From Candidatus Omnitrophota bacterium (lineage in GTDB: Bacteria > Omnitrophota > Gorgyraeia > Duberdicusellales > 4484-171), in contig JAIPGM010000005.1 of assembly GCA_021735655.1 (NCBI GenBank), positions 45,461 to 109,460 of the forward strand: DNA of 64,000 nucleotides, given 5' to 3'. The notes beneath the pieces were generated by a model. The model was not told the DNA's origin. It did not search any database and saw only the letters and a program-made list of their open reading frames with translations. Within the stretch, counting starts at the first letter, position 1; each line of letters opens with the position of its first letter. Made by a program: the position numbers and the translations under genes. Positions 50,140-63,992 of the stretch are shown piece after piece.

Positions 50140-51295
50140 TTGTTGTAGAATGGACACTTACTCAAAACAACACTTTTTGCCATGAAAGGAGCTTTTGTAT
50201 CATGAACCACACCCAATCTTATACCATAAACGGCTGTATATTCCAAGAGTTTTTACTGCTTCTGGGCAGGGTTGTCCACAGTGACCTGATCCGGCAGATG
50301 GAGTACCTGAAAGTGGAGAATGAGGTTCTGCGGACCAAATGCCCGAAACGGATAACCACAAGCCCGGCCGAGAAACGTAAGCTCATCAAATACGGCCTTG
50401 CCTGCAGGGGCAGAATAAAAGGCATTATATCCATCGTAAGCTATTCTACCTTCAGGCGCTGGGTAAATGGCGATATCCGCAATAAATATAAGCCTTCCAA
50501 GCAAGGCACGCCCAGAAAGACCACACAGGAAATAATAGACCTTATAGTACGCCTTGCCCGGGAAAACTGCGACTGGGGCTATGGCCGGATAATGGGCGAG
50601 TTAAAGAAACTAAACATCATCAGACTGTCCCGGAATACCATAAAGGCCATAATGCGCCAGAACGGCCTTGATCCGGCACCAATAAGGGCCCATGACTCAT
50701 GGGATGCCTATATAAAGCGCCATTTCGAAACCTTATGGGCTTGTGACTTCTTTACCAAGACCATCTGGACAGCCATGGGGCCCAAGCTATTCCATGTATT
50801 ATTCTTCTTGAATATCAGAACCCGGAAGGTCCATATAGCCGGTATAACAGAAAAACCTAAAAAGGAATGGGTGATGGAAGCGTCAAAGACGGTATCGTTT
50901 CTATTCAAAGATAAGACCAAGAAGCTCCTTATTCGAGACGGTGATGCTAAATTCCCGAAAGAGTTCAATAGCCTTTTCAAAGACTGTAATACAAAAGTCA
51001 AAAAGATACCGCACCGGTCACCGAATCTTAACCCTTATGCCGAAGGCTTCGTGGGAACCATAAAAAGGGAATGCACGGATCACTTCTTCGTGTTCGGCGA
51101 ACGTCACTTCGAATACCTTGTCCGGGAATACGTCAAATACTATAATACCAAACGTCCGCATTCCGGCCGGGATAACCGGCCCCTTGAATATCATTCGGAG
51201 AAATCAACCGGCAAGCTCAAATGCGACTCACGCCTGGGTGGGATGATTAAGCATTATTATTGGGGGTAACGGAAGGTCACAGTAACTCATCCTCA
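50140..51295 (+). mobile_element. IS element (IS481/IS3-like, single DDE transposase ORF); ends approximate
   Basis: Transposase ORF with a local rise in GC relative to flanks. Terminal inverted repeats could not be defined by eye. Confidence 0.4.
50202..51269 (+). CDS. DDE transposase with N-terminal HTH/leucine-zipper and rve integrase core domain
   Basis: AAAGGAG RBS. rve-type motifs (..WACDFF.., RDGDAKF, NTKRPHSG). 355 aa. Codon usage and GC differ from neighbours. Confidence 0.8.
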   Translation: MNHTQSYTINGCIFQEFLLLLGRVVHSDLIRQMEYLKVENEVLRTKCPKRITTSPAEKRKLIKYGLACRGRIKGIISIVSYSTFRRWVNGDIRNKYKPSKQGTPRKTTQEIIDLIVRLARENCDWGYGRIMGELKKLNIIRLSRNTIKAIMRQNGLDPAPIRAHDSWDAYIKRHFETLWACDFFTKTIWTAMGPKLFHVLFFLNIRTRKVHIAGITEKPKKEWVMEASKTVSFLFKDKTKKLLIRDGDAKFPKEFNSLFKDCNTKVKKIPHRSPNLNPYAEGFVGTIKRECTDHFFVFGERHFEYLVREYVKYYNTKRPHSGRDNRPLEYHSEKSTGKLKCDSRLGGMIKHYYWG

Positions 51296-52101
51296 TTAAT
51301 GTAACGAAATATAGCAGTGTCATTCGAAGCTTTCATTGCGTATTCGTTTTCTAATCGATATCGTGCCACACACTGGAGAAAAGAACCAATGTCATGAAGA
51401 TGGCGAACTTGATCCCATGAATCCAACTTTAAATCAATGCCATAACCAGGCTTTCTAACAATATGAGCAATGCTGTGTCTAATCGAATCCTTCACGTATT
51501 CTCCGGCACTCACATTATTAGTATTTTGATCATGAAGAAAAATTCTATTGGCTGTAAAACGAGTTATAGTTTCACGCATATACTCTAACTCTCGAGGCCA
51601 ATTACCAACAAGATTATTAATATAAGCAACGGCCACACTTTCATCTGCGCTGGGATATACCAAACAATGCCAGAAAAAAAGAATTTGCAAATAAATATTA
51701 TTTGAGCTATTTGCTTCCCGATATAAACGGGCTAACTGGATTTGCTCCGGTGTACTCAAAAGAGATATTGTATAGAATTCGTCCATGGATTCACTGGCAT
51801 TTATCGACCTTTTGACGGAAAAACGAATGTTAACCTTGTTTAGTTTAGCGTCTACCTGCGAACTTATCCCGGAGTGCGTTATAACCCGAGCATTATTAGC
51901 AAAGGTAAAAGCGGAAAGAAATTCAGTCATCAGCTCAAACATCTTCGGTTGGCTACTGCCCTTGGGAATCTTGCATACCAGATCGTCAGTTTCATTGCTC
52001 TTATAATGAGGCACATATTTAAAATCAACATCCTTATAACGAAAATAATATACATCCTTGCGGAAAGCTATCGATATGTCTACTCCGATTGCATAAATCA
52101 T
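51277..52101 (-). CDS. Hypothetical protein, fourth gene of the SIR2 operon
   Basis: 274-aa ORF, 34 nt after the preceding gene, same strand. No recognised motif. Confidence 0.45.
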   Translation of the reverse strand: MIYAIGVDISIAFRKDVYYFRYKDVDFKYVPHYKSNETDDLVCKIPKGSSQPKMFELMTEFLSAFTFANNARVITHSGISSQVDAKLNKVNIRFSVKRSINASESMDEFYTISLLSTPEQIQLARLYREANSSNNIYLQILFFWHCLVYPSADESVAVAYINNLVGNWPRELEYMRETITRFTANRIFLHDQNTNNVSAGEYVKDSIRHSIAHIVRKPGYGIDLKLDSWDQVRHLHDIGSFLQCVARYRLENEYAMKASNDTAIFRYINEDELL

Positions 52102-52135
52102 ATTAATTCCATGATATAAAGGTTGTTTTCAAAGT

Positions 52136-53029
52136 TTATTGTTCGATAGAAGGCTTTTTGGCTTTAAAATAGTTCAGTAATAAGTAATAACGCAGTGCCA
52201 ATTTTTTATCTCCGGCTTCTTTTCTTTTTTTGTATTCTGATTCCACAAATTTAGATGCTTGGCCAAGTCCTTCTTCAAATTTCTTTGCCTGTTCTGAGTT
52301 TTCATTTATACTTTGTAAGAATTCCTTACCGAGATAATCTAATATTGACACACCATCTAAATCCCGGACTATCATTTTTAGACAACTCGTTGCCATAACC
52401 TTGCACAGCTCGACATCCTCATTGGTTTGTGCGGGTAATTGCGGATGCTTATTTGCTAACGTCGCCAAATAATTTAACAGTTCCCGCCCGATAACTATTC
52501 GTGGATATTCCGCAATTTTGCTTTCCAATGCATATGCCTTATATAAGGCAAGTCCATAAATTTCGCCATTAACCAATTCAGTTCCCAAGCCCACTTCTAT
52601 ACCGGCTCGAAATGCCTTTTTCATTGCCAAAGATAAAACCATCATGCCTCCACACGCTAACAGTGTGCCAAAGACACCATTAATTGCATGTGAGTGATAT
52701 TTATCCGTATGCAGACAAACGTAAGCTTGAATACAATCTGAAAAACGTTGATGCTTCAAATTGCTTTTTAGCATTTCTTTGAATTGCTCCATTTTTTCCG
52801 GAGGCACTTTAACCGAAGGCTCCCTTTCTTCTGTATAAGCATCAAAGAAATCCTGGAATCCATTGCGCAAAGTTTCGACGAACATCGCTGTTTGTTTATG
52901 GGCTTCTACTAAGCGTGGATGATTATCTTCAAGGGATTGGCCTTCAAGCCCTTGAAAAGCTTCTTTCTGGCCTAAAATATCGATAAAAGCTACAAGATAA
53001 TAATAGTAATTTATGTTATCTTTTGCCAT
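52136..53029 (-). CDS. Nucleotide-cyclase/GGDEF-like palm-domain protein (third gene of the SIR2 operon)
   Basis: YLVAFIDILGQKEAF resembles the metal-binding strand FaDIvGFT of class III cyclases. FRAGIEVGLGTELVNGEIYG..AYALES resembles RiGIhtGpvvaGviG..VNtAsRlES. The central segment ACGGMMVLSL occupies the position of a GGDEF-like turn. Confidence 0.45.
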   Translation of the reverse strand: MAKDNINYYYYLVAFIDILGQKEAFQGLEGQSLEDNHPRLVEAHKQTAMFVETLRNGFQDFFDAYTEEREPSVKVPPEKMEQFKEMLKSNLKHQRFSDCIQAYVCLHTDKYHSHAINGVFGTLLACGGMMVLSLAMKKAFRAGIEVGLGTELVNGEIYGLALYKAYALESKIAEYPRIVIGRELLNYLATLANKHPQLPAQTNEDVELCKVMATSCLKMIVRDLDGVSILDYLGKEFLQSINENSEQAKKFEEGLGQASKFVESEYKKRKEAGDKKLALRYYLLLNYFKAKKPSIEQ

Positions 53030-53045
53030 AATACGTCTCAGCCCA

Positions 53046-55826
53046 CTACTTGTTATATTTCTTATAAATTTCTGTTAAAAACTCAAACCCTGCTCTAGCA
53101 TATTTATCACAAATAGAATTTGCAATTTCATTTTTAAAACCAGCTAAATAAATTTTTTCAACAATAGATTGAATATTTTCTTGCTTATACCACGGAATAC
53201 TTTTTTCTATCATTATTAAAAATACATTCCCTACGTCTTTTGGGTTAACGTCTGCTAATTTATCGAAATACTCAAGTAAGAATGAACTATGGTAACGCTC
53301 TTCTACATATTTAATTGACTGCTTCAACCAATCCACCTGCTCTGTTTGTAATTGATCAAGAAATACCGCGAGTAGATTCAAATCGGAAAGGATGTCTTTG
53401 TTTTTGTCTTCTTTTCCTTTTGTTCTGTTAAAACAATACCGCCAAAATTCAAATATTCTTTCCTTTTGGTCGCAATCTAATTGCGCATCCCTATGAGCCC
53501 AAAAAAGACTGATCACCTCTTCAATATCATTTGGGTCCCATTTTTCTAAAATATATTTAAACAAACTGTCTTGGCCATCTATAGTCTCTTGCCCCCTTAA
53601 GTAGGATATTGTTACATTTTCTACAATTCGTCTTTTCGCTTGATCGTTCGAAAATTTTGTATCAAGCGCACGCCTTAGATGACCGTTATCTTTTAATAGA
53701 TTGTAGATAACAGCATAAACGGTATTGACATAAGAATATCCTTGCATAGCGCATCGCCAATGCTTTTCTTCAGCAGGAAAGATATTATTAATATTCGAAG
53801 TAACCCAATTTTTCTGCAAATAATACAAATTAGGCAAATAAGCACCAGATAGGCTTGAGAATTCGAAGTTTCCTTCCTTTGTTCTTTCAATCTCCCGACT
53901 AAATAGTGGCGCTACTGTCTTCCAGAAATCCTCTTTTTCTTTTATACCTTTATCAGGCAATTTTTCGAAATCACGGTACCGCCTAAGGACATAACTTTTA
54001 AAACTCTCTAGCACATGACCCTTTGTGGTATTAATCGCTTCGGTAAGCGCGTCTTCATCTTTACCACTTGCTGTTGATTCTTGTTTATCAAGCAGGGTCC
54101 GAATAATATTGTCTATTCTCTTATAATTATTCTCAGTAAGATTCAAATCGTCATTCTGAATCCCATTCTTGATCAAATCCGAGATAGCCGCAGGAATCCA
54201 ACTTTTCTTAGGTTCAAGGGGAAACTGACTCTCCTTCTCTTTCCCGTCCCACAATACATCATCGCAGACGATAGCTTGACAAAAGTCTAAAATCTTGTCC
54301 CAATTAATCTCTTTTTTATCCCGCGCAAGTTCTTCAAACGCCTCTATTACATAATACCAATATTCGTAACTAGACTTCTTGAACTCAATGAGACAATTTT
54401 CAAAAAATCCCTGTTTTAGCTTAATCGCTTCTTTTAAAGACTGGCCTGCTTCTCGTATCGCAGTTTCTCCAAAGCGGTTTTTACCTTTGAAGTTACCAAG
54501 GAAAGTAATAATTTCGTTAATGCTTCCCTGTGCCAACAATTCACTAGCTGAAAATAGAGACTCATCCCCCCATGATACAGGTCCAATATAACTTAAGAAT
54601 TCTGGATGTTCCGGCTTATAATCAATCCCTTTAAAATATTTCTCCTCTACATCATTCGGTATTGAATATCCCGAAACTTTAATAGCATATAGCCATCGCC
54701 TGCGAAGTATCGCATCCAATTTTTCCTTATCAACATCTTTTCTCCAGTCCCCGGACAACTGAACAACATCATTCATCAATGAATTCTGAAGATCTTGAGA
54801 AAATTGTTTAAAGTGGCGTGTTATCAGCTTATACAGTTCGTGGTGATAATTACTTTCGAGGAAAATAGTTTTACCGGTATCGCGAATGATTTTTTCACTA
54901 GTGGTTTTGTATTTATCAAACAACTGTCCTGTAATATACAATGAAAAACGTCTAATAATATGCTTGTCTGACCTAAAGCATGATTCAATAATAGTAGACG
55001 CTTCCTGTGAGGACGCATAGGCAAGAAACACATCTCTTAATCCAGAAACTAAAATATGTCGATATTCATCTCTGCTTATATTCTGTTCGCTATCTTCGAT
55101 TGCTGGACGCCACATATAAGAATATGCGTCATCCTTTTCCGTCACAATATGCTCAATTTTCTTCTTAAGAATTTCGACAATTTCGGCACCATATTTTTCG
55201 CCCAAATGCGTAGCATTGATCTTAAATAATTCCTGCAAACTATGGGCACCAAGGCTATGCCGATTTTCAATCCTGATGAAGTCAAGAATGATTTCTATAA
55301 GTCGGCTAACTTTTTGTAACTCCTCTGGTTCTTTCAATAAGTTTGGCAAAAGGGTTTTGCCAATCTCCAGCATTACCATTGAGGCATCAAACTTACTGTC
55401 AAGCCAATCAGCAATAAGCTCAATATCTTTTATTTCCACGACATCTGACGGCAAGAGTGCCATGATTTTAACAAAAGACTGCCACGTACGCCAATTATCT
55501 GCTTTTTTGGTCTTATCATCGGGACGAGTCACCTCACGAATAATTGACATTAACTTTCGGACATGCTCTTTATTTCCAGATTTCGAGCATTCTTTGGATA
55601 CCTTTTCTAAATATGTCAAAGCAGGCCAATATGGAATTGAGAAGAAACCTTTGTTTTTTTCCGACTCTACTGGAGAAGGATTATTTGTTGAACCAAAATA
55701 ACCATGATCTTTAAGCAAAGTAAGATATTCAACCTTCGACAATTCATTAAAGACCTGTGCTCGGTATTCAGCCCCTTTTGCCATGTAATCTAAAAGACTT
55801 TTTTGCTCTGGAGTTATATTCGTCAT
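53046..55826 (-). CDS. Large (926 aa) all-alpha-helical repeat protein, second gene of the SIR2 operon; no NTPase motifs
   Basis: No Walker A/B. Helix-rich composition throughout. Start overlaps the SIR2 stop (ATGA). Confidence 0.5.
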   Translation of the reverse strand: MTNITPEQKSLLDYMAKGAEYRAQVFNELSKVEYLTLLKDHGYFGSTNNPSPVESEKNKGFFSIPYWPALTYLEKVSKECSKSGNKEHVRKLMSIIREVTRPDDKTKKADNWRTWQSFVKIMALLPSDVVEIKDIELIADWLDSKFDASMVMLEIGKTLLPNLLKEPEELQKVSRLIEIILDFIRIENRHSLGAHSLQELFKINATHLGEKYGAEIVEILKKKIEHIVTEKDDAYSYMWRPAIEDSEQNISRDEYRHILVSGLRDVFLAYASSQEASTIIESCFRSDKHIIRRFSLYITGQLFDKYKTTSEKIIRDTGKTIFLESNYHHELYKLITRHFKQFSQDLQNSLMNDVVQLSGDWRKDVDKEKLDAILRRRWLYAIKVSGYSIPNDVEEKYFKGIDYKPEHPEFLSYIGPVSWGDESLFSASELLAQGSINEIITFLGNFKGKNRFGETAIREAGQSLKEAIKLKQGFFENCLIEFKKSSYEYWYYVIEAFEELARDKKEINWDKILDFCQAIVCDDVLWDGKEKESQFPLEPKKSWIPAAISDLIKNGIQNDDLNLTENNYKRIDNIIRTLLDKQESTASGKDEDALTEAINTTKGHVLESFKSYVLRRYRDFEKLPDKGIKEKEDFWKTVAPLFSREIERTKEGNFEFSSLSGAYLPNLYYLQKNWVTSNINNIFPAEEKHWRCAMQGYSYVNTVYAVIYNLLKDNGHLRRALDTKFSNDQAKRRIVENVTISYLRGQETIDGQDSLFKYILEKWDPNDIEEVISLFWAHRDAQLDCDQKERIFEFWRYCFNRTKGKEDKNKDILSDLNLLAVFLDQLQTEQVDWLKQSIKYVEERYHSSFLLEYFDKLADVNPKDVGNVFLIMIEKSIPWYKQENIQSIVEKIYLAGFKNEIANSICDKYARAGFEFLTEIYKKYNK

Positions 55827-56812
55827 TTGTTTAATAACCGCCTTATGACATCTTTTTCTTCTTCAAAATTAGGCTTATTGACTTTAGCTTTTAGAACAGC
55901 TGCCCATTTAATAATGATCTCTTCCAAATGAACGTGTCCTTTTTTGTCGATGTTATAGTCAATCAATTTTATGCCACAATGTCTTTCAAAATATCCCTTA
56001 AGATGCTTATAGGCAGCGTTATCCCTGCTCATACGTGGATATAGCCAAAAATGCCTTGGTTCTTCAACCCTCGGGGAATTGCTTTTTCTAACAATGAACT
56101 CCAATATTTCTTCTTCTTCCAGTCCATATCCAATAAACAAGACAATCTTCCGCGAAAACAAATCATTTAAAAAATCTATAACAAATCTATTCATATAATG
56201 ATCCATATAATCTCTGGTGGTCATAATCATGGTTTCTTTGCTTTTTACGCTTCCATGAAGATGAATAACCGAGCCTGGCTGATCTAGTCGCGCAGATGTT
56301 AAATCCTCTTTCCTGAAAAATACAGAAGTAGGAGAGGTAATTCCAGAGTTTCCCAGAGAACTGTCATCACCTTTTGAACTTAATATTTTATTATCAGCGA
56401 GCTTATCAAGGCAATCATCATAATTAGTCGTTACAAAAACAGTCCCTATCGAATACAAAGCATCGTATATCGCCGTTTTTACCGCTATTTCTTTATCCTG
56501 AAAAATTAACCTTCCATAATCATAATCGATGCCTTTTGCTTTGTAGTTATCAAAAAAAATAGAGAGTTGAATCTTGGGGTTTAAGGCTAAGAGAGAAGAT
56601 TTTTCTGAATATTCGATGTGCCCTTCTTTATAGAGAATGTCAATCGCCCGTCTTCCAAGCTCAACCCATGAAGGGTACCCCAATAATCTAGATACTCCAT
56701 TGCCGACAAACAAAATTAATTTGCCGTTTTGAGCTGCGTCGATAATAGACGAATGATCTTCTATGTTGGGAATAATTCTTGACGCAGGATTTTTATCTTC
56801 TATCGTCATCAA
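55823..56812 (-). CDS. Stand-alone SIR2_2-family (defence-type sirtuin-like NADase) domain protein
   Basis: Motifs in the canonical order: KLILFVGNGVSR (GAGxS equivalent), VFVTTNYDDCLD, VIHLHGSV (catalytic His), IVLFIGYGLEE. 329 aa. Confidence 0.75.
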   Translation of the reverse strand: MMTIEDKNPASRIIPNIEDHSSIIDAAQNGKLILFVGNGVSRLLGYPSWVELGRRAIDILYKEGHIEYSEKSSLLALNPKIQLSIFFDNYKAKGIDYDYGRLIFQDKEIAVKTAIYDALYSIGTVFVTTNYDDCLDKLADNKILSSKGDDSSLGNSGITSPTSVFFRKEDLTSARLDQPGSVIHLHGSVKSKETMIMTTRDYMDHYMNRFVIDFLNDLFSRKIVLFIGYGLEEEEILEFIVRKSNSPRVEEPRHFWLYPRMSRDNAAYKHLKGYFERHCGIKLIDYNIDKKGHVHLEEIIIKWAAVLKAKVNKPNFEEEKDVIRRLLNK

Positions 56813-57157
56813 TAATACCCCCTAATATACGTTTCTAAATCTACCTCTCCGTCCAATACCTCTGCTTGATCCAAAACCTTTTTGACGGGTACAGTATATT
56901 CACCGGTCGGTTAGTTCCCCACTACCTGCTAACCCTTCTACCAACCTAATTTACCAACCCATGATTCTTACTGGTTAGTTATCTGGGCAGTTTTCAGGGT
57001 AGTCTTTTTAGGATATTCAAAATATTTGTTACTCATACATGACCTTTATAATATTACTTTCATAAAAAATGCCATAACCTGAATTCTATCGGGCTACGGC
57101 AAATCGCAATGGCAGGTCTTTTAGTCTAAAACTCTCGAGCAACCTTCGCCCATCAAA

Positions 57158-57931
57158 TTAGCACTTTAAACATTTTTCTTTTTTAGTCGACTGCTGTTTT
57201 GAATGTATTCGTTCCCGCGCCATCCGACAATACTCTGGAGAAATATCAATGCCGATATAATTTCGTTTAAGGTCCCTTGAAACAACGGCTGTCGTTCCCG
57301 AGCCCATAAAAGGATCAAGTACAATTTTAGCATTGGTTGATGATACAATTCTTTGAATCAAAGATACAGGAAATGGAGCAGGGTGCCCATTTTTCATTTC
57401 CTGCGTAAATTCCCAAACATCACCGTAGGCATTCGCTTTTTTTGCCAATTTGAAATCCGGTTTAGCTATCAAGTATATAACCTCATAAGTAGGCAAGAAA
57501 TACCCTGCGTTAAAATTAATTCCACCTTTTCTTTTCCAAACAATAATCTGGCGCACAGGAAATTTACTGACAATGTCATGCCGGTCTTGAAGCAAGCCAT
57601 TTTGTACCCGCCATTTATGATTATAAAAAATTGCTCCGTCATTTTTTATTAATCTATACATTTCATCGAGACATTTAATTTGCCATGACACATATTCTTC
57701 ATGAGGCATACAGTCATCATGATGACTGTATCCGTTAATCAAAGCGGCTCTCGACCATTTACCACCGCGACCATCTTTCATACCGTTTCCTGTAGAATTC
57801 TTAAGATTGTAAGGCGGAGATGTCACAGCCAAATCAATCGATTCGTCCGGCATTGCTTTCATTACTTCTAAACAATCACCGCAAATGATCTTATTCAGAT
57901 AATCCTTAGGAAATTTTAGTTTAGCACTCAT
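57158..57931 (-). CDS. DNA amino-methyltransferase, beta-class (motif IV SPPY N-terminal, motif I FMGSGTT C-terminal); N4-cytosine or N6-adenine
   Basis: LAVTSPPYNL near the N-terminus. DPFMGSGTTAVVS near the C-terminus. Confidence 0.8.
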   Translation of the reverse strand: MSAKLKFPKDYLNKIICGDCLEVMKAMPDESIDLAVTSPPYNLKNSTGNGMKDGRGGKWSRAALINGYSHHDDCMPHEEYVSWQIKCLDEMYRLIKNDGAIFYNHKWRVQNGLLQDRHDIVSKFPVRQIIVWKRKGGINFNAGYFLPTYEVIYLIAKPDFKLAKKANAYGDVWEFTQEMKNGHPAPFPVSLIQRIVSSTNAKIVLDPFMGSGTTAVVSRDLKRNYIGIDISPEYCRMARERIHSKQQSTKKEKCLKC

Positions 57932-57955
57932 TTCATTCTTTCGATAACAGGTTAA

Positions 57956-58762
57956 TCAAAACACCTCTTTAACATCATCATATAGATCCGACCACACGCC
58001 TTGCTTGAGCCGAAATTTTGTTCCGTGGTTATGTCCCGTTCGGGCGTCAAAATCAATCAACAAACTTCCTGCCTCTACACAGCACAAGAATTTCTCAAAT
58101 GAAAAACCAGATAGAACAGAAAGGTGTTGATAGCAAAAATACTCATGCCCGTCGTCAATTTTGGCCTCAGCGATAACGTAAAAACAATTCTTTATTTTTT
58201 CGCCAATCGCATACTTCAAATCTTCAAAGCCCCAATAAGGCTCCGGTGAAATCGCTCCCAAGCCAGCTCTTTTTTTAACAGAAGATAGCCATGCCTTGAT
58301 CTCAGGGTCTGCCATATCAGCCTTCTTTGAGTCAAATACGAACTTCAACTTTTTAGCAGTACGATCAACGACTACTGTAAATCCGCGATTTGTAAAACTA
58401 CTAGAGCTGGTGGTAGACCGAAAACTCATTTCAGTTTTGGGGTATTTAAACCCAGCCTGTTTATGTGGCCAACCATATTTTGGTAAAAGAATATTGCTTA
58501 CAATCCGAGCCGCTGTTGGCGATGGTTCAATGTGCTTTAATGTTATAAGCGAAGAAGAATGCGCTCGCTGTCCTTTAAGCTCCCATTCTCGAGCATTAGG
58601 AATCGGCAGATTGTTTTCTGTAATGCCAAGAAGAACTTCAAGCGTGTTGCCAACAGCGCCATCATTTCGAGTGTCTCGTGTTTGTTTTACGCTCTTATGC
58701 CACCCTTTCGATGCGATAGCTTTAATTTCCTTGATTAACTCATCCTTTGAAAATAATTTCAT
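57956..58762 (-). CDS. Type II restriction endonuclease, MvaI/BcnI-like
   Basis: Sandwiched between two MTase genes with 24- and 13-nt spacers. N-terminal pattern MKLFSKDEL..DGAVGNTLEVLLGI.ENN..EWELKG matches my recollection of this family. A candidate ExK (VIAEAK) follows acidic residues. Confidence 0.5.
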   Translation of the reverse strand: MKLFSKDELIKEIKAIASKGWHKSVKQTRDTRNDGAVGNTLEVLLGITENNLPIPNAREWELKGQRAHSSSLITLKHIEPSPTAARIVSNILLPKYGWPHKQAGFKYPKTEMSFRSTTSSSSFTNRGFTVVVDRTAKKLKFVFDSKKADMADPEIKAWLSSVKKRAGLGAISPEPYWGFEDLKYAIGEKIKNCFYVIAEAKIDDGHEYFCYQHLSVLSGFSFEKFLCCVEAGSLLIDFDARTGHNHGTKFRLKQGVWSDLYDDVKEVF

Positions 58763-58775
58763 AATCTCCCTTTCA

Positions 58776-59768
58776 CTAATACCTTTTTTGGGGCGGCTTC
58801 CAGAAATCTAAAAGATATTCAAAAGTTACACCCATTGTTATATAATTGCTTGGCCAGCCAAAAATACCAATGCCATTGACCACATTGGTACGATCCCATA
58901 TTATGACATTTCGTAATTCATAGCCTCTCTTACGGAGTTCCTCAATCAACGAAACGTGAATTGTAATGCGCCGGTTTTCCCACCACATATCCGGAACATT
59001 AATAACGCAATGTGCTTTCTCTCTAAGCAGAGGAAGTAACCCTTCAAAAATATCTCCCATTGCCGTCGTATAGGAATCAATAGCCATTGTGCCTAGATCA
59101 CGCACATCTTGAGAATATTGCTCAACTTTACCCAATTGCTTGTTGTTCCTGTCGCGTCGAGATTTGTTTTGACGGGATCTATTTAAAAGATTTGCGTAGG
59201 GCGGAGATGTCCAGATCAAACTTACAGTATTGGGGGAGAGATATTCTGAAATATTTCTGGCGTCATCCTGAATGGCCATCTGAGCACATGCATTAAACAG
59301 GTTAGGATTCTTTTGGAGCCGCTTAACACATAACTCAATGTATTTTTTTTGGAGATCGAACCCAACGGCATTTCGGTTCAAATCAGTTGCGGCAATAAGT
59401 GATGTTCCACTTCCAACAAACGGGTCAATAACCAATTGTCCCTGATGTGTGAATAATTCGATGACTTTTTTTGCGAGGGATATTGGAAAAGTTGCAGGAT
59501 GAACAGATTTATCTCTTATATCGCGAGTTTCATAAAAAAACTGCCAAACTCCTATTTGGGATTTAAGCCAGTCCTTGGGGCCCATGCAATTAATATGTGT
59601 ATGGCCACAATTACATAAACGCTCGTGCGCCATACCTAGCTTTGTGCCATATAAAGAATCGCCTTCAAAAACGGCCAAGGCTTTTTGCTCTGTTTTACTC
59701 TTATCATTGTGACCCTGATCAATAGATCTTTTGTCAACCGCGCTATGACCAAAACTTTGATTTCCCAT
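58776..59768 (-). CDS. Second DNA amino-methyltransferase (motif I DPFVGSGTS precedes motif IV SPPY)
   Basis: DPFVGSGTSLIAATDL at ~aa 113. IWTSPPYANL at ~aa 187. 330 aa. Confidence 0.8.
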   Translation of the reverse strand: MGNQSFGHSAVDKRSIDQGHNDKSKTEQKALAVFEGDSLYGTKLGMAHERLCNCGHTHINCMGPKDWLKSQIGVWQFFYETRDIRDKSVHPATFPISLAKKVIELFTHQGQLVIDPFVGSGTSLIAATDLNRNAVGFDLQKKYIELCVKRLQKNPNLFNACAQMAIQDDARNISEYLSPNTVSLIWTSPPYANLLNRSRQNKSRRDRNNKQLGKVEQYSQDVRDLGTMAIDSYTTAMGDIFEGLLPLLREKAHCVINVPDMWWENRRITIHVSLIEELRKRGYELRNVIIWDRTNVVNGIGIFGWPSNYITMGVTFEYLLDFWKPPQKRY

Positions 59769-59825
59769 TTCTATCTCTTTTCCCCTTCCCTCAATCGATT
59801 ACTTCGTTTAGGTAAAATAAAAAAA

Positions 59826-60446
59826 TTAGATATTTCGAATCGTAGTAACTACAATACCCTGCACCTGAAAATCTCTAGTAACCACTATTGGCTTATGTTG
59901 TTTATTGCTCGAACACGGTTTCAAAACGACCGTATCTCCTGATGAATTATATTGTTTAACTGTAACCTCGTTGTCAACTAAAGCAATGATGACATCTCCT
60001 GTGTTTGCGGTTTCCTGTTTGCGCACGAGTAGGAAGTCACCATCTTCAATACCTTTCTGATTCATTGAGTCGCCTTTGGCTCTGACAAGAAAATATTTAT
60101 GCGGAAGTTGGGCTAATTTTGTTGAAACCGGAAACCACGATTCGATATTTTCTTCAGCTAAAATAGGAATACCACAGGCAACAGTACCGACAAGAGGCAC
60201 GCTGATTGTCTGAACATTATCACTGTTATTAATATCCATAACCAATCGCAAGGCCCCTGAAGGATTTCTACGCAACACTCCTTTAGAAATTAATTTGTTA
60301 ATCAATAGGGCAACAGAGCGAGGTGAACGATATCCTAAAGTCCCCATTAAGTCTCTTAATGAAGGGCATTTGCCAAAATTGACAAGAGCATTTCGGATGG
60401 CTTTAATGACAATCGCTTCTTTATCGGAAATCATTATATTGCTCAT
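59826..60446 (-). CDS. LexA/CI-like repressor with S24 peptidase domain (ORF-track extent 59826..60527; start more likely at 60446 or 60434)
   Basis: N-terminal HTH (LVNFGKCPSLRDLMGTLGYRSPRSVALLINKLISKG). VACG cleavage-site analogue. S24 Ser/Lys region (AKGDSMNQ..). A perfect palindrome lies at the start. Confidence 0.7.
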   Translation of the reverse strand: MSNIMISDKEAIVIKAIRNALVNFGKCPSLRDLMGTLGYRSPRSVALLINKLISKGVLRRNPSGALRLVMDINNSDNVQTISVPLVGTVACGIPILAEENIESWFPVSTKLAQLPHKYFLVRAKGDSMNQKGIEDGDFLLVRKQETANTGDVIIALVDNEVTVKQYNSSGDTVVLKPCSSNKQHKPIVVTRDFQVQGIVVTTIRNI

Positions 60447-60463
60447 GTATACAATTGTATACA
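60446..60463. promoter_or_regulatory. Perfect 18-bp palindrome TGTATACAATTGTATACA at the repressor start (SOS-box-like operator candidate)
   Basis: Exact palindrome with the half-site pattern TGTATAC..GTATACA, reminiscent of CTGT-N8-ACAG LexA boxes. It overlaps or abuts the repressor start codon. Confidence 0.5.
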
Positions 60464-61085
60464 ACATGGATAACTTTGTCAATGATTTATTTTCTTGATG
60501 ATGAAAAGGCAACGCTGATAATAACATATGTGTTTTTCAGAACATCAAAACTTGTTCAGGTTTTACTGACTTTCAAAGCCACGGCTTAACAGGACAAAAC
60601 TACATTTATACTGACATTCGCATGTCAATGATGACAATTTTGCCCTGTTTTGACCCTGTTTTGAGCCATTTTGGGCCCTTTTTACTGACATATTGGCATT
60701 GGAATGTCAGGGTGTACCGGCCGTTTTGCCCTCAAATCGTGAAATAATTCCAATCATAACATCAATAACTACAATATATTACGCATAAATAGTCTTTTCC
60801 AAGATCATGATGCGAATGACAAAATTGTCCCTGACATCGTTTTTTGAAGTCAAAATCACTGACAAACTGCGCCTCGGCTGACCCTCGGCCCAGGCCCGCC
60901 CGGGAAGGACCCACAATAATAATGCGTGCGGAGGAGGGTGGCAAGGAGGCCAATCTCCACCCTCTGCCAAGGCGCATTTACTCCATTAGAAAGCCGTCAT
61001 TTCTAACAGAGTTTACCTGACAAAACCTTTGCGATGGAACAGCGTCCGAGATCATCGCTTGGGCTTCTCCGCATTATTTGACTTG

Positions 61086-61769
61086 TTACTCCGTTACCGC
61101 TTCCGAAACATCCACAGCAAGGGAAGACTGCACACTGAAACGTTTCGTAAGTTTGTCTATTTCTTCCTCGATATCGAAGCTCCGCACCCAGCTCTCCTTT
61201 CGCTCGATATCCTTTTCGATATCCGCAACCGTCGGCTTACTTCTATCGGCCAAGGCTCTGTCTTTGGCCTCATGAAATATGTCATACGGTTCACTTCCAA
61301 GCGCCGGACTGAACGATGGATATTCCTCAAGACGTCTTCGTGCGGTTTCCGGATGACCATATATTGCGATAGCCATAGCGTAAAGCCTGCCTTTTTCACG
61401 CCAGAGCTCAAGCTCCACCTTCAAACGCTTGCTGTTAAGCACTCTGCGCTCTGTCACGATATTGCGTGATTCTTCCTCATGCAGGGCTGTCAGTGTTTCA
61501 GAAAGCTTTGCCTTTAGCTTTTCGATAGTTTCGTCAACGATCTCGAGATTTATCTTGGCCTCATCGAAACGCTTGTCCGCTTGCTTTACCGCATCCGGAC
61601 TTATTTTCTCGTCGCATATTGCCCGGCTTCTGATTTCTTTTACCTTTTCCTTCGCCTCGTCGTGTTCCTTCTGATATTGCCTTTGCTTTTTCTCAAGCGC
61701 TACTATCTGTTCGACAATCTCATCCGGCGTGCTTTTCTTATTCAGAATATTCAGAAAATTAAGTTTCAT
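61086..61769 (-). CDS. Coiled-coil hypothetical protein
   Basis: 227-aa ORF, highly charged with heptad-like patterns. Preferred over the shorter overlapping plus-strand ORF. Confidence 0.45.
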   Translation of the reverse strand: MKLNFLNILNKKSTPDEIVEQIVALEKKQRQYQKEHDEAKEKVKEIRSRAICDEKISPDAVKQADKRFDEAKINLEIVDETIEKLKAKLSETLTALHEEESRNIVTERRVLNSKRLKVELELWREKGRLYAMAIAIYGHPETARRRLEEYPSFSPALGSEPYDIFHEAKDRALADRSKPTVADIEKDIERKESWVRSFDIEEEIDKLTKRFSVQSSLAVDVSEAVTE

Positions 61770-61775
61770 GATTTT

Positions 61776-62195
61776 TTATCTCCTTTCGATTTTGTTAGGT
61801 GCTGTAATAGATAAGGCTTCTTCCAGGCTACAACCATTCGATTCCTGATAACTTCTGGCACGTTCGATATGCTCCAACTGCTCGGCAATTAAAGCGCTGT
61901 CGGAATCAACCTTTTTATCCGGCGCTGTCCGGCTTAAAGCCTCGGTTAACGTACACTCGAATTTATCCCTGTACTCATAGGCCCGCTTGAGATGTTCAAG
62001 CCGGATATCGCCGGTAGAGACCATTCCCGGATGTTTCTTTGCTGTCACCCGTAAAGCCTCGGCAAGAGTGCATTTATTGCGCTTCATGTAGATATTGGCG
62101 TCGATTAAATGCACAAGTTGTTTTTCTTCCTCCGAGCCCGGGACATAACGCTTGATCATCTGACTGATCGTATTCAATACATGTAATTGGTTCAT
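61776..62195 (-). CDS. Small protein with three ~40-aa internal repeats (C(T/S)L(A/T/E)EAL..TA)
   Basis: Repeats RNKCTLAEALRVTAKKHP / KFECTLTEALSRTAPDKK / ESNGCSLEEALSITAPNK. Confidence 0.45.
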   Translation of the reverse strand: MNQLHVLNTISQMIKRYVPGSEEEKQLVHLIDANIYMKRNKCTLAEALRVTAKKHPGMVSTGDIRLEHLKRAYEYRDKFECTLTEALSRTAPDKKVDSDSALIAEQLEHIERARSYQESNGCSLEEALSITAPNKIERR

Positions 62196-62282
62196 TTTTA
62201 GTCTCCTCCTGTTTTGGTTTTCGTTACTATGAAATTACCCATGGCTTTTTATCTACACCCTCATAGAATCACCTCCCCCTGT

Positions 62283-62549
62283 GATGACCGTGAACGTTGT
62301 GAACGTAAATTCCTGTCTTTTCTAATTACCTCTTTTTGCGTAGTTTCTTGACCTTTTACCCTTATTTTTCTAAACCTTAAAAAGCAGGAAATTACGTTCA
62401 AGATCTTCACAATCTTCATAACTTGTTATGGCTTCATGCGTTACCCCATGAATATGGCTGTGACCGTGGAAGGCTGATATTCACAACGTTCACTCGAATC
62501 AGCCCGGCGTATCTTCGCAACGTTCACAGACGTTCACACCTTCGTTCAC
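62283..62549. repeat. Iteron-like array: two GTGAACG repeats (62290-62305) and four inverse-oriented CGTTCAC copies (62485-62549) bracketing an AT-rich spacer; candidate origin
   Basis: Direct reading gives GTGAACGTTGTGAACG, and then CACAACGTTCAC, GCAACGTTCAC, GACGTTCAC, TTCGTTCAC. TGACCGTG is also duplicated at both ends. Confidence 0.55.
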
Positions 62550-63992
62550 ACTGTTTTCAAAAAACGTATCGCCTTTATTCTTGCGTAAAATAAATAGCTT
62601 CCGGCCCGTTCCGGATTCCCGCTTTTTGCTACGTACAATATCAATTCCTATACCACGCATAACCGGCGCTATCCTCATAAGCTCCGATGATAGAGCCTTG
62701 GGATTATCGGGAATGCGTTTATCGAACCCGGACTCCGGCTTAATATACTCAAGCAAGGTAGTGGCTGAACCGCACCACTGTCCGCCGTTGGATTCCACAA
62801 GATAGGCTAACTTCTGCGTAATAGGGTTCTCTTCGGCAGTATCTTCCCATTTATACTCAACCGACTCCTGATACTTTTTGAAAAACTCATCCTGTGAATA
62901 TCCCAGTGTCTCGGAAAGGGCCGCGCCCCACCTGGCAAAGTCTGACATTCTAAACTTTTCATGGCCGGTTACTTTATTAACGATGGCCATAGCATTGGAT
63001 ATCGCCGAGAAGAAACCGCCCAATATGCCCGGAAGCGATGCCTGCCATTCATCGGCAATCTGCTTTTCGGGCCTTGTTTCTTTTAAAGGCGGGATATCGA
63101 AGATGATGGATCTATCCAGTAAATCCGGCCTGCATACGGAATTGCCTATACCGTTTAATACAAAGCACCGGCGGTATGTCCGTATGAATACCTCGTCATT
63201 CGTGTAAAGCGAGCGTTTCATGTCACCTTCACCGGTTACGGCCCGGCAGAGGAAATCACTGAACCATTCGGAAATCTTCGAAAGGTTATCGAAAGTATTT
63301 ATCCAGTGTTTATCTGCTATCATTTGAGCCTGATCCAAATCCTTTGGGCTTGAGATGAGCATAACCTTGGAAGGGTCGCATAGGCTTTTAATCAACCGGG
63401 AATTATTGGATTTTCCCGTGCCTTGCTCGCCGACTTGAACAGGTATAACGTGGGGAATATCTGGAATAAAAAACGACGCTAACATCGTCATGAAAAGACA
63501 GTAATCATCCTTGTTGATATTACAGAATTCCAGAAACCTCTTCGGATCATGTCCTTTAACAGGTATAACCTGCGTATCCTGATGATTGTATCTTTTGAAT
63601 ACCGGCGGAAGGTAGACAACCTGCCAGCCTTTCTTATCTATAAAGACTCCCTTCCAATCGGGTGTAGTAAGATCATAATAAATGCTGTCTTTATACCAGC
63701 CGACACGGTTATAAAGTTCGAATTTGGGCGAATCTTCGCATTTTGCCTCTGCCTGAATCCGTGCCTGTTTTAATGCTTCGTTACATGGCGGGCTTTTGTA
63801 TTTATAGCGGTAGCGCTTGGCAAGCCAGTTCCTGAAGCGGGAGCTGTTGGTCTGGCATACCTCCAGATGATTATCGATAGGGAGCACTATAAAGGAGTTG
63901 CCTTGCTGATCACGATAATAGTCTGTTATTTCTTTTTCGCAGTATCGTGTAAGTATTTCACCCTGGGTGGGATGCGCCTTGCGATAATTCAC
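62499..63992 (-). CDS. VirE/P4-primase C-terminal-like P-loop ATPase (replication protein of a mobile element)
   Basis: Walker A VGEQGTGKSNNSRLI. A hydrophobic stretch followed by D (Walker B-like). 497 aa. Next to the iterons. Confidence 0.55.
   Translation of the reverse strand: MNYRKAHPTQGEILTRYCEKEITDYYRDQQGNSFIVLPIDNHLEVCQTNSSRFRNWLAKRYRYKYKSPPCNEALKQARIQAEAKCEDSPKFELYNRVGWYKDSIYYDLTTPDWKGVFIDKKGWQVVYLPPVFKRYNHQDTQVIPVKGHDPKRFLEFCNINKDDYCLFMTMLASFFIPDIPHVIPVQVGEQGTGKSNNSRLIKSLCDPSKVMLISSPKDLDQAQMIADKHWINTFDNLSKISEWFSDFLCRAVTGEGDMKRSLYTNDEVFIRTYRRCFVLNGIGNSVCRPDLLDRSIIFDIPPLKETRPEKQIADEWQASLPGILGGFFSAISNAMAIVNKVTGHEKFRMSDFARWGAALSETLGYSQDEFFKKYQESVEYKWEDTAEENPITQKLAYLVESNGGQWCGSATTLLEYIKPESGFDKRIPDNPKALSSELMRIAPVMRGIGIDIVRSKKRESGTGRKLFILRKNKGDTFFENSVNEGVNVCERCEDTPG

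Follow-up and report, generated by a model that had tools for sequence, protein, structure and literature searches.

Analysis of a 64,000-nt stretch of contig JAIPGM010000005.1 from a Candidatus Omnitrophota bacterium (hereafter the window, meaning the whole stretch analysed) revealed, at positions 57158-59768, a locus that is almost certainly a Type II restriction-modification (R-M) system of the MvaI/BcnI family type. These positions enclose exactly three open reading frames (ORFs), all intact and all on the minus strand, which in the direction of transcription encode methyltransferase 1 (330 aa; 58776..59768), a restriction endonuclease (268 aa; 57956..58762) and methyltransferase 2 (257 aa; 57158..57931). 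The gaps are 13 nt between the methylase 1 and nuclease genes and 24 nt between the nuclease and methylase 2 genes, and purine-rich ribosome-binding sequences lie ahead of the nuclease and methylase 2 genes. A reading made earlier by a model from the letters and an ORF list (the sequence-only reading) had described two amino-methyltransferases around a nuclease, as is found here; the methyltransferase that it called the first is indeed first in plus-strand coordinates but, since the genes lie on the minus strand, is the last gene of the operon.

Beyond these positions the unit continues upstream to about 60482, taking in a LexA-like gene together with the promoter and operator of that gene, and downstream to about 57064, taking in a terminator. 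The LexA-like gene (59826..60446, minus strand) encodes 206 aa from an ATG at 60446, within a maximal ORF that extends to 60527, and ends 57 nt upstream of the methylase 1 gene, a gap in which a promoter scan found no promoter-like site. The same scan identified a sigma-70-type promoter ahead of the LexA-like gene (60454..60482, minus strand), with the -35 element TTGACA at 60482-60477, a 17-nt spacer and the -10 element TACAAT at 60459-60454, which matches the consensus at 11 of 12 positions and is the best of the region. Because the ATG at 60446 lies only 7 nt past the -10 element, the LexA-like mRNA is predicted to be leaderless. A putative operator, TGTATACAATTGTATACA (60446..60463), forms a perfect 18-bp palindrome of the form TGTATA-N6-TATACA that shares bases with the -10 hexamer, the predicted start of transcription and the ATG.

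At the other end, RNA folding detected an intrinsic-terminator-like hairpin with a 10+2-pair stem at 57100-57071, followed by a T6 run at 57069-57064 (feature 57064..57100, minus strand; z = -2.6 for a 121-nt stretch), and a hairpin with a T-run after methylase 2 is kept in the related loci L002 and L003 (L labels denote loci from other genomes and contigs). A consensus terminator scan missed this operon terminator and found none in the intergenic gaps from the LexA-like gene to 57064-57100, its three matches all lying within coding sequences (CDS). The identities and order of the genes and the architecture of the promoter and operator are conserved as a unit within unrelated flanks. We consider it likely that a mobile cassette of about 3.4 kb, running on the minus strand from about 60482 to 57064, carries the genes for the LexA-like repressor, methylase 1, the nuclease and methylase 2 as a four-gene operon; weighing against this, co-transcription of the LexA-like gene with the methylase and nuclease genes is inferred from their spacing. 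As an R-M system, the locus is a further member, from an uncultured lineage, of a known kind, and all three of its R-M proteins are already modelled in PADLOC-DB.

Nuclease family, active site and target

The 268-aa protein had been likened to the MvaI/BcnI nucleases from an N-terminal pattern alone, and profile searches, solved relatives and the predicted fold all agree with that assignment. The protein matched Pfam MvaI_BcnI (PF15515) at 1.2e-62 and 212.3 bits, against a cut-off of 25, with residues 10-261 spanning profile positions 1-227 of 227. The only solved relatives retrieved by phmmer were R.MvaI (4e-14) and R.BcnI (4e-9), and a profile of 40 diverse homologues searched against the Protein Data Bank (PDB) returned MvaI (8e-37), BcnI (3e-28) and nothing else. 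An AlphaFold2 model built on the 40-homologue alignment (predicted local distance difference test, pLDDT, 94.4; predicted template modelling score, pTM, 0.89) is predicted to contain the two-lobed MvaI/BcnI fold with a catalytic and a recognition lobe. In a Foldseek search of this model against the PDB, the MvaI-DNA complex 2oaa ranked first (E 6e-20; template modelling, TM, scores 0.75/0.81) and BcnI (2odh/2odi) second (TM 0.67/0.74 to BcnI-DNA), with further matches at E > 0.08. Thus R.MvaI (CC/WGG; PDB 2oa9, 2oaa) is the best match in both sequence and structure, and identity to R.BcnI is about 20-25%. PADLOC REase_II model PDLC03524 covers the nuclease end to end (1e-73). The cut CC/NGG, which the sequence-only reading gave for the family, is shorthand for two specificities, CC/WGG for MvaI and CC/SGG for BcnI. 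Like MvaI and BcnI, the window enzyme is predicted to be a monomeric, two-lobed PD-(D/E)XK nuclease that would cleave a pseudo-palindromic CCNGG-type site by successive nicks, cutting one strand after the second C and then turning round to cut its partner.

The family is very large: a search at E <= 1e-5 returned 6320 clusters, of which the top 120 are nearly all 268 aa long, 67-97% identical and spread over many phyla. Plasmid and phage collections contained only distant nuclease homologues (<=38% identity) with generic labels. One MvaI/BcnI-family nuclease of 32% identity, on the Lactococcus lactis plasmid NZ_CP065985 (L044, 4742-6928), has a small C-type helix-turn-helix (HTH) gene before it and faces a single 728-aa methylase, whose N-terminal segment is HTH-like and which matches several methylase families weakly. 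This locus represents another organisation and control mode of this nuclease family.

Comparison of active-site residues revealed a departure from both solved enzymes. The MvaI active site comprises Glu36, Asp50, Glu55 and Lys57, of which Asp50 binds both metals, and the catalytic residues of BcnI are D55, E60 and K62. The candidates in the window nuclease are E42, N56, E59, E61 and K63, where E42, E61 and K63 correspond to MvaI E36, E55 and K57. The family pattern E...PD...ExK is incomplete, with Asn56 replacing the aspartate of the PD motif that bridges both catalytic metals in the two solved enzymes (MvaI Asp50, BcnI Asp55). Taken alone, Asn56 would predict an inactive nuclease, and this weighs against a working R-M system.

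One explanation would be that the change from PD to PN has crippled the nuclease, leaving a locus that serves mainly as a methylation (epigenetic) module or a nickase-based system, and the loss of an aspartate that ligates both metals in MvaI would fit, as would the invariance of Asn56 in the 120 closest cluster representatives. The same PN clade is nevertheless under strong purifying selection, shown by its near-constant length of 268 aa at 67-97% identity across many phyla and by the invariance of E42, E61 and K63 within it, and PN-type nucleases are nearly always paired with a methylase. Among more distant representatives, clustered at 50% identity, 109 cover position 56, with Asp in 54 of them and Asn in 50, and an acidic residue (Glu or Asp) at position 59 co-varies with Asn56, being present in 45 of 49 sequences with Asn56 and in 19 of 52 with Asp56. 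PD-type and PN-type relatives share the same type of methylase as partner, and the cassettes avoid CCSGG in their own genes, as expected if the nuclease cuts. We therefore regard a crippled nuclease as quite improbable and read the enzyme as probably active because of the strong purifying selection, the constant pairing with a methylase and the avoidance of CCSGG. The alignments point to a variant active site inside the family, with the homology itself unaffected, in which a clade-wide PN..E/D-x-E-x-K arrangement may let residue 59 take over metal binding; the PD-to-PN clade is thus a possible case of active-site migration.

The residues aligned with DNA-reading positions of the solved enzymes were used to consider the target. 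Candidates for recognition in the window nuclease are N33, T74, H77, D237, H244-N245-H246 and R251, and the residues by which MvaI reads the CC:GG part of its site are kept (H223/H225 as H244/H246, R230 as R251, D207 as D237, T68 as T74 and N28 as N33). In contrast, MvaI Arg209, which reads the central T and G+1, is Asp239 here, and the BcnI residues that read the central C:G pair, H77 and H219, align with H77 and H244 of the window nuclease.

Site counts in the cassettes' own genes pointed in the same direction. For this test we pooled the CDS of 36 non-identical cassettes (61 kb) and compared 18 patterns with 300 synonymous-codon shuffles. CCSGG was the lowest of the 18 patterns, with 7 sites observed and 29.9 expected (observed/expected, O/E, 0.23), a count that none of the 300 shuffles equalled or fell below. 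CCWGG (20 observed, 31.5 expected, O/E 0.63; 3 of 300 shuffles as low or lower) was no lower than controls such as GGSCC (30 observed, 45.7 expected, O/E 0.66; 1 of 300), and CCNGG as a whole stood at O/E 0.44 (z = -5.0). A pooled dinucleotide-shuffle test, in which CCSGG and CCWGG were also low, was dropped as its controls were biased too.

On this evidence we favour CC/SGG as the most likely nuclease target, with about even confidence. Several observations weigh against it: BcnI H219 and MvaI H223 share one alignment column yet read different base pairs, making any residue-based call of the target soft; CCWGG is also somewhat low in the cassettes; and the 36 cassettes are related by descent, so that the avoidance statistic overstates their independence. 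The sequence-only reading had proposed a count of CCNGG sites; the window as a whole avoids neither CCSGG nor CCWGG by a maximal-order Markov model or by dinucleotide shuffling, and CCSGG is even over-represented in it (91 sites against 57 expected), so that a signal came from the pooled, codon-preserving test alone. The longest CCSGG-free gap in the window, 6.1 kb (54751-60898), spans the cassette; the absence of CCSGG from the 3.5-kb module is not significant alone, and CCWGG is absent there too.

The alternative that the enzyme cuts CC/NGG, as ScrFI does, or CC/WGG, as MvaI does, is one that we doubt but take seriously, as the nuclease is slightly nearer MvaI than BcnI by sequence and fold, retains the MvaI-like H-x-H motif and occurs in cassettes with fewer CCWGG and CCNGG sites than expected, the module in the window having no CCWGG at all. 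Set against these points are the replacement of the MvaI central-base reader Arg209 by Asp, the presence of counterparts for both BcnI central-pair histidines and a depletion of CCSGG far stronger than that of CCWGG, which stays at the level of the GGSCC control. Four other words, GTAC, TGCA, CGCG and GATC, were under-represented in the window (maximal-order Markov model; O/E 0.54-0.76, z -5 to -7), which hints at other restriction pressures on the host genome.

Two methylases of different architecture

The two methylases differ in the order of their motifs as the sequence-only reading had described. Methylase 2, the 257-aa protein, has SPPY at residue 38 followed by DPFMGSG at 206, the order of the beta class, and its match to Pfam N6_N4_Mtase (3.5e-43) is collinear, residues 32-239 corresponding to model positions 1-220. 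In methylase 1, the 330-aa protein, the S-adenosylmethionine (SAM) motif DPFVGSG at 115 comes before SPPY at 188, and the match to the same model (1.3e-25) places residues 71-147 on its C-terminal, SAM-binding part. A match of this kind to the C-terminal part of a beta-ordered model is direct evidence for circular permutation, and BLASTP aligned methylase 2 with methylase 1 in permuted fashion, the SAM region at 172-243/74-152 and motif IV at 16-47/166-198.

Only 73 aa separate the SAM motif (115) from the catalytic motif (188) of methylase 1, with no inserted target recognition domain (TRD), and membership of the alpha class was ruled out on these grounds. A 2025 preprint on methyltransferase (MTase) topologies defines topology E as having the SAM motif less than 100 aa before the catalytic motif with no TRD inserted, and gives M1.BcnI and M4.BstF5I as exemplars. 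By its motif order and spacing, methylase 1 fits this definition and has this rare topology.

The conserved core of methylase 1 begins at about residue 46, the first ~45 residues not being conserved. An NCBI protein from a Candidatus Omnitrophica metagenome-assembled genome (MAG), annotated from Met46, is 100% identical to residues 46-330, and the PADLOC Type II MTase model PDLC03363 covers residues 43-325 (5e-140). Residues 50-61 contain a conserved R-x-C-x-C-x3-H-x-N-C pattern (C52, C54, H58, C61) that may bind metal.

Both methylases carry the SPPY form of motif IV. Among solved structures, methylase 2 is closest to the N4-cytosine MTase N4CMT (8s9n, 1.2e-38, residues 6-245) and methylase 1 to the putative methylase 2zie (1.6e-15) and N4CMT (1.8e-14). 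The SPPY motif together with the relationship to N4CMT favours N4-methylcytosine (m4C) as the predicted product of both enzymes, motif IV being only a tendency. N4CMT of the rotifer Adineta vaga (PDB 8s9m/n/o) is an N4-cytosine MTase of bacterial origin and, like methylase 2, belongs to the beta class. Unlike methylase 2, it is eukaryotic, chromodomain-linked and outside any R-M system, and its bacterial relatives are less than ~40% identical.

Comparison of the cassette with 34 genome loci encoding nuclease homologues of 50-98% identity revealed which methylase travels with the nuclease. A methylase 1 homologue lies upstream of the nuclease in 29 of the 34 loci, directly adjacent in 27, across many phyla and in otherwise unrelated contexts. 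Methylase 2 is found after the nuclease in the closest clade alone (L001-L003, L006, L007, L036-L038, L042 and L043), and the closest cassettes come from Omnitrophota and Planctomycetia MAGs. In one locus with a 96%-identical nuclease (L004), methylase 2 is absent and the DNA homology ends at the nuclease stop codon. There, in an Omnitrophica MAG, a DDE/insertion sequence (IS) transposase gene (6823-7686 of L004) occupies the methylase 2 slot. Judged by this distribution, methylase 1 and the nuclease form the conserved core, with methylase 1 the putative ancestral partner and methylase 2 an add-on of this clade, predicted to be a second, independently sufficient partner that the clade captured.

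Elsewhere the methylase 2 type serves by itself. In an Alistipes MAG a 72%-identical methylase 2 homologue is the sole methylase beside a 53%-identical nuclease, and on an Acinetobacter plasmid a 67%-identical homologue is the sole methylase beside a 38%-identical nuclease. In addition, the PADLOC model PDLC03305 (513 positions) matches methylase 2 at positions 10-242 (2e-125) and the nuclease at 254-510 (8e-73), and one model over both proteins implies the existence of natural fusion proteins. The possibility that methylase 2 is an unrelated orphan was ruled out by the span of PDLC03305 and by this role as sole partner elsewhere; each of the two methylase types co-occurs with nuclease homologues across phyla, which sets aside the orphan status that the sequence-only reading had named as one outcome that would tell against it, and the family match of the nuclease sets aside the other, a middle ORF unlike any nuclease.

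Because each methylase type alone partners nuclease homologues, and because PDLC03305 spans methylase 2 and the nuclease, the two methylases probably share the site of the nuclease, that is, are isospecific. In the mechanism that we propose, both SPPY-type methylases, probably N4-cytosine enzymes, would modify the same site and protect host DNA, and, by analogy with BcnI and DpnII, single-stranded DNA (ssDNA) may be a further substrate of one of them.

A different division of labour can be imagined in which the methylases are non-redundant, each modifying one strand of the asymmetric central pair (CCCGG versus CCGGG) so that both are needed. The presumed site is indeed pseudo-palindromic and read asymmetrically by the nuclease family, and the two methylases are of very different architecture. 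We judge this strand-by-strand division very improbable, as most related cassettes have methylase 1 alone and others have the methylase 2 type alone, from which it follows that either enzyme alone must protect both strands. The joining of methylase 2 and the nuclease in one PADLOC model, with the fusions this implies, the IS in place of methylase 2 beside the 96%-identical nuclease of L004 and the reported isospecificity of the BcnI methylases all argue in the same direction.

The BcnI system of Bacillus centrosporus (R.BcnI, M.BcnIA/M1.BcnI, M.BcnIB, C.BcnI) offers the closest parallel to two isospecific methylases. As in the window, one nuclease is combined with two circularly permuted methylases, one of the beta class and the other a short, TRD-less topology E enzyme; the window nuclease has counterparts of the central-pair readers H77 and H219, and CCSGG is avoided in the cassettes. 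BcnI differs in the catalytic PD aspartate, which is Asn in the window nuclease, and in its layout and control, the window genes being collinear in the order methylase, nuclease, methylase (M-R-M), with no C-type HTH gene and a LexA-like gene instead. The BcnI genes are reportedly arranged as two converging pairs, C-R and B-A, and the beta methylase is said to be essential in that system, while in the window cassette the topology E enzyme belongs to the core and the beta enzyme is the add-on. The analogy to the two-methylase BcnI system drawn in the sequence-only reading therefore holds: BcnI is cited as pairing a single nuclease with two methylases of the same specificity, one of which, M.BcnIA, modifies ssDNA as well, and topology E is common to both systems. 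MvaI, the closer relative of the nuclease, has a single methylase.

A second parallel is the DpnII system (DpnM, DpnA, DpnB), which likewise has two isospecific methylases, of which DpnA acts on ssDNA entering the cell. DpnII differs in its unrelated nuclease family, its GATC target and its N6-methyladenine (m6A) modification, and dpnA in pneumococcus is under competence control and not under a LexA-type repressor. DpnII-like M-R-M cassettes headed by close relatives of the LexA-like repressor, with an identical operator, are described below.

The LexA-like leader gene and its relatives

The protein encoded by the leader gene has the domain composition of LexA, with an N-terminal winged HTH (Pfam LexA_DNA_bind, 3e-7) and a C-terminal S24 peptidase domain (Pfam Peptidase_S24, 3e-28). 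It scores 157.7 bits against NCBIfam lexA TIGR00498, above the cut-off of 110.95, and over 97% of its length shares 35.5% identity with E. coli LexA. Plasmid and phage collections yielded only canonical LexA proteins, about 35% identical. In five orthologues of the LexA-like protein, Ser127 (GDSM), Lys164 (TVKQ) and the Cys91-Gly92 pair (VAC-G) are invariant, and by motif, from what is known of LexA and UmuD, we take these to be the equivalents of LexA S119, K156 and A84-G85. The orthologues are 207 aa long and start at an ATG equivalent to 60446.

The arrangement at the head of the cassette recurs with the gene. In L002-L005, L007, L042 and L043 the cassette is likewise headed by this LexA-like gene, with flanking genes that differ throughout, and the promoter, operator and leaderless ATG are kept in six related loci in which the sequence before the -35 element is unrelated. 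Only one exact TGTATA-N6-TATACA occurs in the 64-kb window. These observations lead us to favour, with modest confidence, the proposal that the LexA-like protein controls the R-M operon in place of a C protein. The protein is predicted to bind the 18-bp palindrome, which would hold the operon low and make it autoregulated; with its Ser/Lys dyad and Cys-Gly site intact, it would then undergo RecA-stimulated self-cleavage, raising expression after DNA damage or phage attack. Against such control stands the finding that most cassettes of this R-M family lack a LexA-like gene.

The position of this gene invites comparison with C-protein R-M systems, in which a small co-oriented regulatory gene likewise comes first, its operator lies over its own promoter and its product is autoregulated. 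Both are presumed to serve in adjusting expression once the genes have entered a new host. The analogy is functional only: C proteins belong to the Xre type of HTH protein, measure about 80 aa, act first as activators and then as repressors, and have no signal-sensing domain, whereas the window regulator is a 206-aa LexA/S24 protein, predicted to be a self-cleaving repressor made from a leaderless mRNA, and neither the ORF list nor Pfam revealed an Xre-type ORF of about 80 aa in the window operon.

A further functional likeness is to CapW/BrxR, CapH+CapP and CapK+CapS, whose repressor genes lie directly upstream of cyclic-oligonucleotide-based antiphage signalling system (CBASS), bacteriophage exclusion (BREX) and R-M operons. 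These regulators are released by DNA damage or ssDNA, and regulator and promoter form a modular, swappable unit. They differ from the window regulator in protein family and in their means of release, which is ssDNA binding by a WYL domain, cleavage by a metallopeptidase or phosphorylation by a kinase, as opposed to the predicted RecA-stimulated self-cleavage of an S24 protein.

Relatives of the LexA-like protein collected by a scan of metagenome contigs revealed that this layout is not confined to the MvaI/BcnI type. Relatives of 47-70% identity share the promoter, the TGTATA-N6-TATACA operator and the leaderless ATG, whereas canonical LexA genes at 33-38% identity have a Shine-Dalgarno sequence and GAAC-N4-GTTC boxes instead. 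Close relatives are followed, in the same direction and within 10-150 nt, by varied defence cassettes. One group comprises DpnII-like M-R-M cassettes with a D12 methylase, a DpnII nuclease and a permuted N6_N4 methylase (L046-L048; in L050 the first two genes precede the contig end), and in these four loci the LexA-like gene is preceded by the identical 18-mer operator, variants of which precede other cassettes. The remaining R-M cassettes encode Vsr with a C5 methylase and a HaeIII nuclease (L051), a methylase with an HNH nuclease (L052), a methylase with a TdeIII nuclease (L055), a D12 methylase with a PD-(D/E)XK protein and a second methylase (L059) and an Eco57I-like fused enzyme (L076). 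Further relatives head SMODS or SAVED (CBASS-like) operons (L060, L062, L077, L083) and an operon with a HerA helicase (L061).

Some relatives of about 48-52% identity (L068, L069) adjoin recA or Y-family polymerase genes, the position expected of a genuine SOS LexA, and the repressors carried by cassettes are probably descended from LexA in these lineages. On the basis of these contexts we tentatively propose, at a confidence just short of even, that a distinct clade of LexA-like (S24) proteins is a portable, DNA-damage-responsive controller module for defence operons in uncultured phyla, a proposal that covers at least six Type II R-M types (BcnI/MvaI-, DpnII-, HaeIII-, TdeIII-like, HNH-type and Eco57I-like) as well as the CBASS-like operons and the operon with HerA.

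The same observations bear on a simpler account, in which the LexA-like gene is the host SOS repressor or a leftover immunity repressor of a prophage or integrative and conjugative element (ICE), lies next to the R-M genes incidentally, and leaves these to an unrecognised promoter of their own. The protein does pass the lexA equivalog cut-off, some relatives adjoin recA or Y-family polymerase genes as just described, most cassettes of the R-M family lack the gene, and the region of the window, with a transposase and Dsr1, resembles a mobile or defence island. Chance adjacency is nonetheless hard to reconcile with a block of homology to other genomes that starts exactly at the -35 box, with unrelated flanks upstream, or with the recurrence of the same repressor, promoter and operator before at least six R-M types as well as CBASS-like operons at gaps of 10-150 nt. 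A single operator in 64 kb, a 57-nt gap before methylase 1 without a promoter-like site and a sister cassette whose corresponding slot is filled by a different small gene for a putative repressor also argue against it. We consider an incidental LexA-like gene unlikely and retain the reading that its product controls the operon.

The sister M-R-M cassette (L036-L038; nuclease 86% identical) carries in the LexA-like slot a 66-aa ORF (4700-4966 of L036) that is ribbon-helix-helix-like by eye and has no Pfam match. The promoter of this ORF is overlapped by an inverted repeat, TGCTATA-N2-TATAGCA, and a DUF2188 gene follows the cassette.

Genomic setting and implications

The cassette lies in a setting that looks like a defence or mobile island, and the Logan contig L001 is 100% identical to the window over 51158-60572. 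The segment downstream of the cassette comprises a Dsr1-like sirtuin defence gene in two ORFs, a pair of unknown genes, and genes for a transposase and an autotransporter. The Dsr1-like pair consists of a SIR2-domain protein of 329 aa (55823-56812, minus strand) and a 926-aa protein (53046-55826, minus strand) that overlap by 4 nt and together fill one PADLOC Dsr1 model, at positions 9-283 and 310-1225 of 1227 (E 4e-55 and 6e-165, respectively). Dsr1 is normally one polypeptide, so that the pair is either split or frameshifted, and the two-ORF arrangement is identical in L001. Just past the terminator, a 22-codon ORF (56968-57036, minus strand) corresponds to the opening codons of Lipase_3, the gene located after the cassette in L002 and L003, and looks like a remnant from replacement of the downstream region by the Dsr1 segment.

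On the upstream side, three co-oriented ORFs of 227, 139 and 497 aa (61086-63992, minus strand) have a higher G+C content of 0.44-0.46 and no Pfam or PADLOC match, and this segment may be part of a mobile element. Several copies of short words containing TGTCA/TGACA occur within the roughly 430 nt that lie upstream of the promoter (60560-60990, minus strand), and a short G+C-rich stretch there, at ~60830-60980, is unlike its surroundings. An Rfam scan of 48-64 kb gave no match, and a tRNA scan of the window found none and thus identified no tRNA-linked integration site.

For the nuclease family, the PN clade, with thousands of sequences, would allow active-site migration to be tested in a monomeric enzyme whose structure is well understood and which has served in nickase engineering. 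For the methylases, the locus adds to BcnI a second natural case, in a lineage far from Bacillus, in which one nuclease has retained two circularly permuted methylases, and the comparative loci, in showing which methylase is the ancestral partner, bear on why methylase redundancy evolves, for example for protection of ssDNA.

Searches of R-M reviews, of the CapH/CapP and CapK/CapS papers and by keyword gave no description of a LexA/S24 protein as controller of an R-M or other defence operon, which is no proof of novelty. If the proposed control is true, the R-M operon would be SOS-inducible, and restriction damage or phage attack would feed back on its expression through RecA; the classical LexA mechanism would then join CapW, CapH/CapP and CapK/CapS in the list of defence regulators and would be a type of R-M controller absent from the literature searched. 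A LexA-type leader common to unrelated R-M and CBASS-like cassettes suggests a simple route by which restriction may be tied to the SOS signal.

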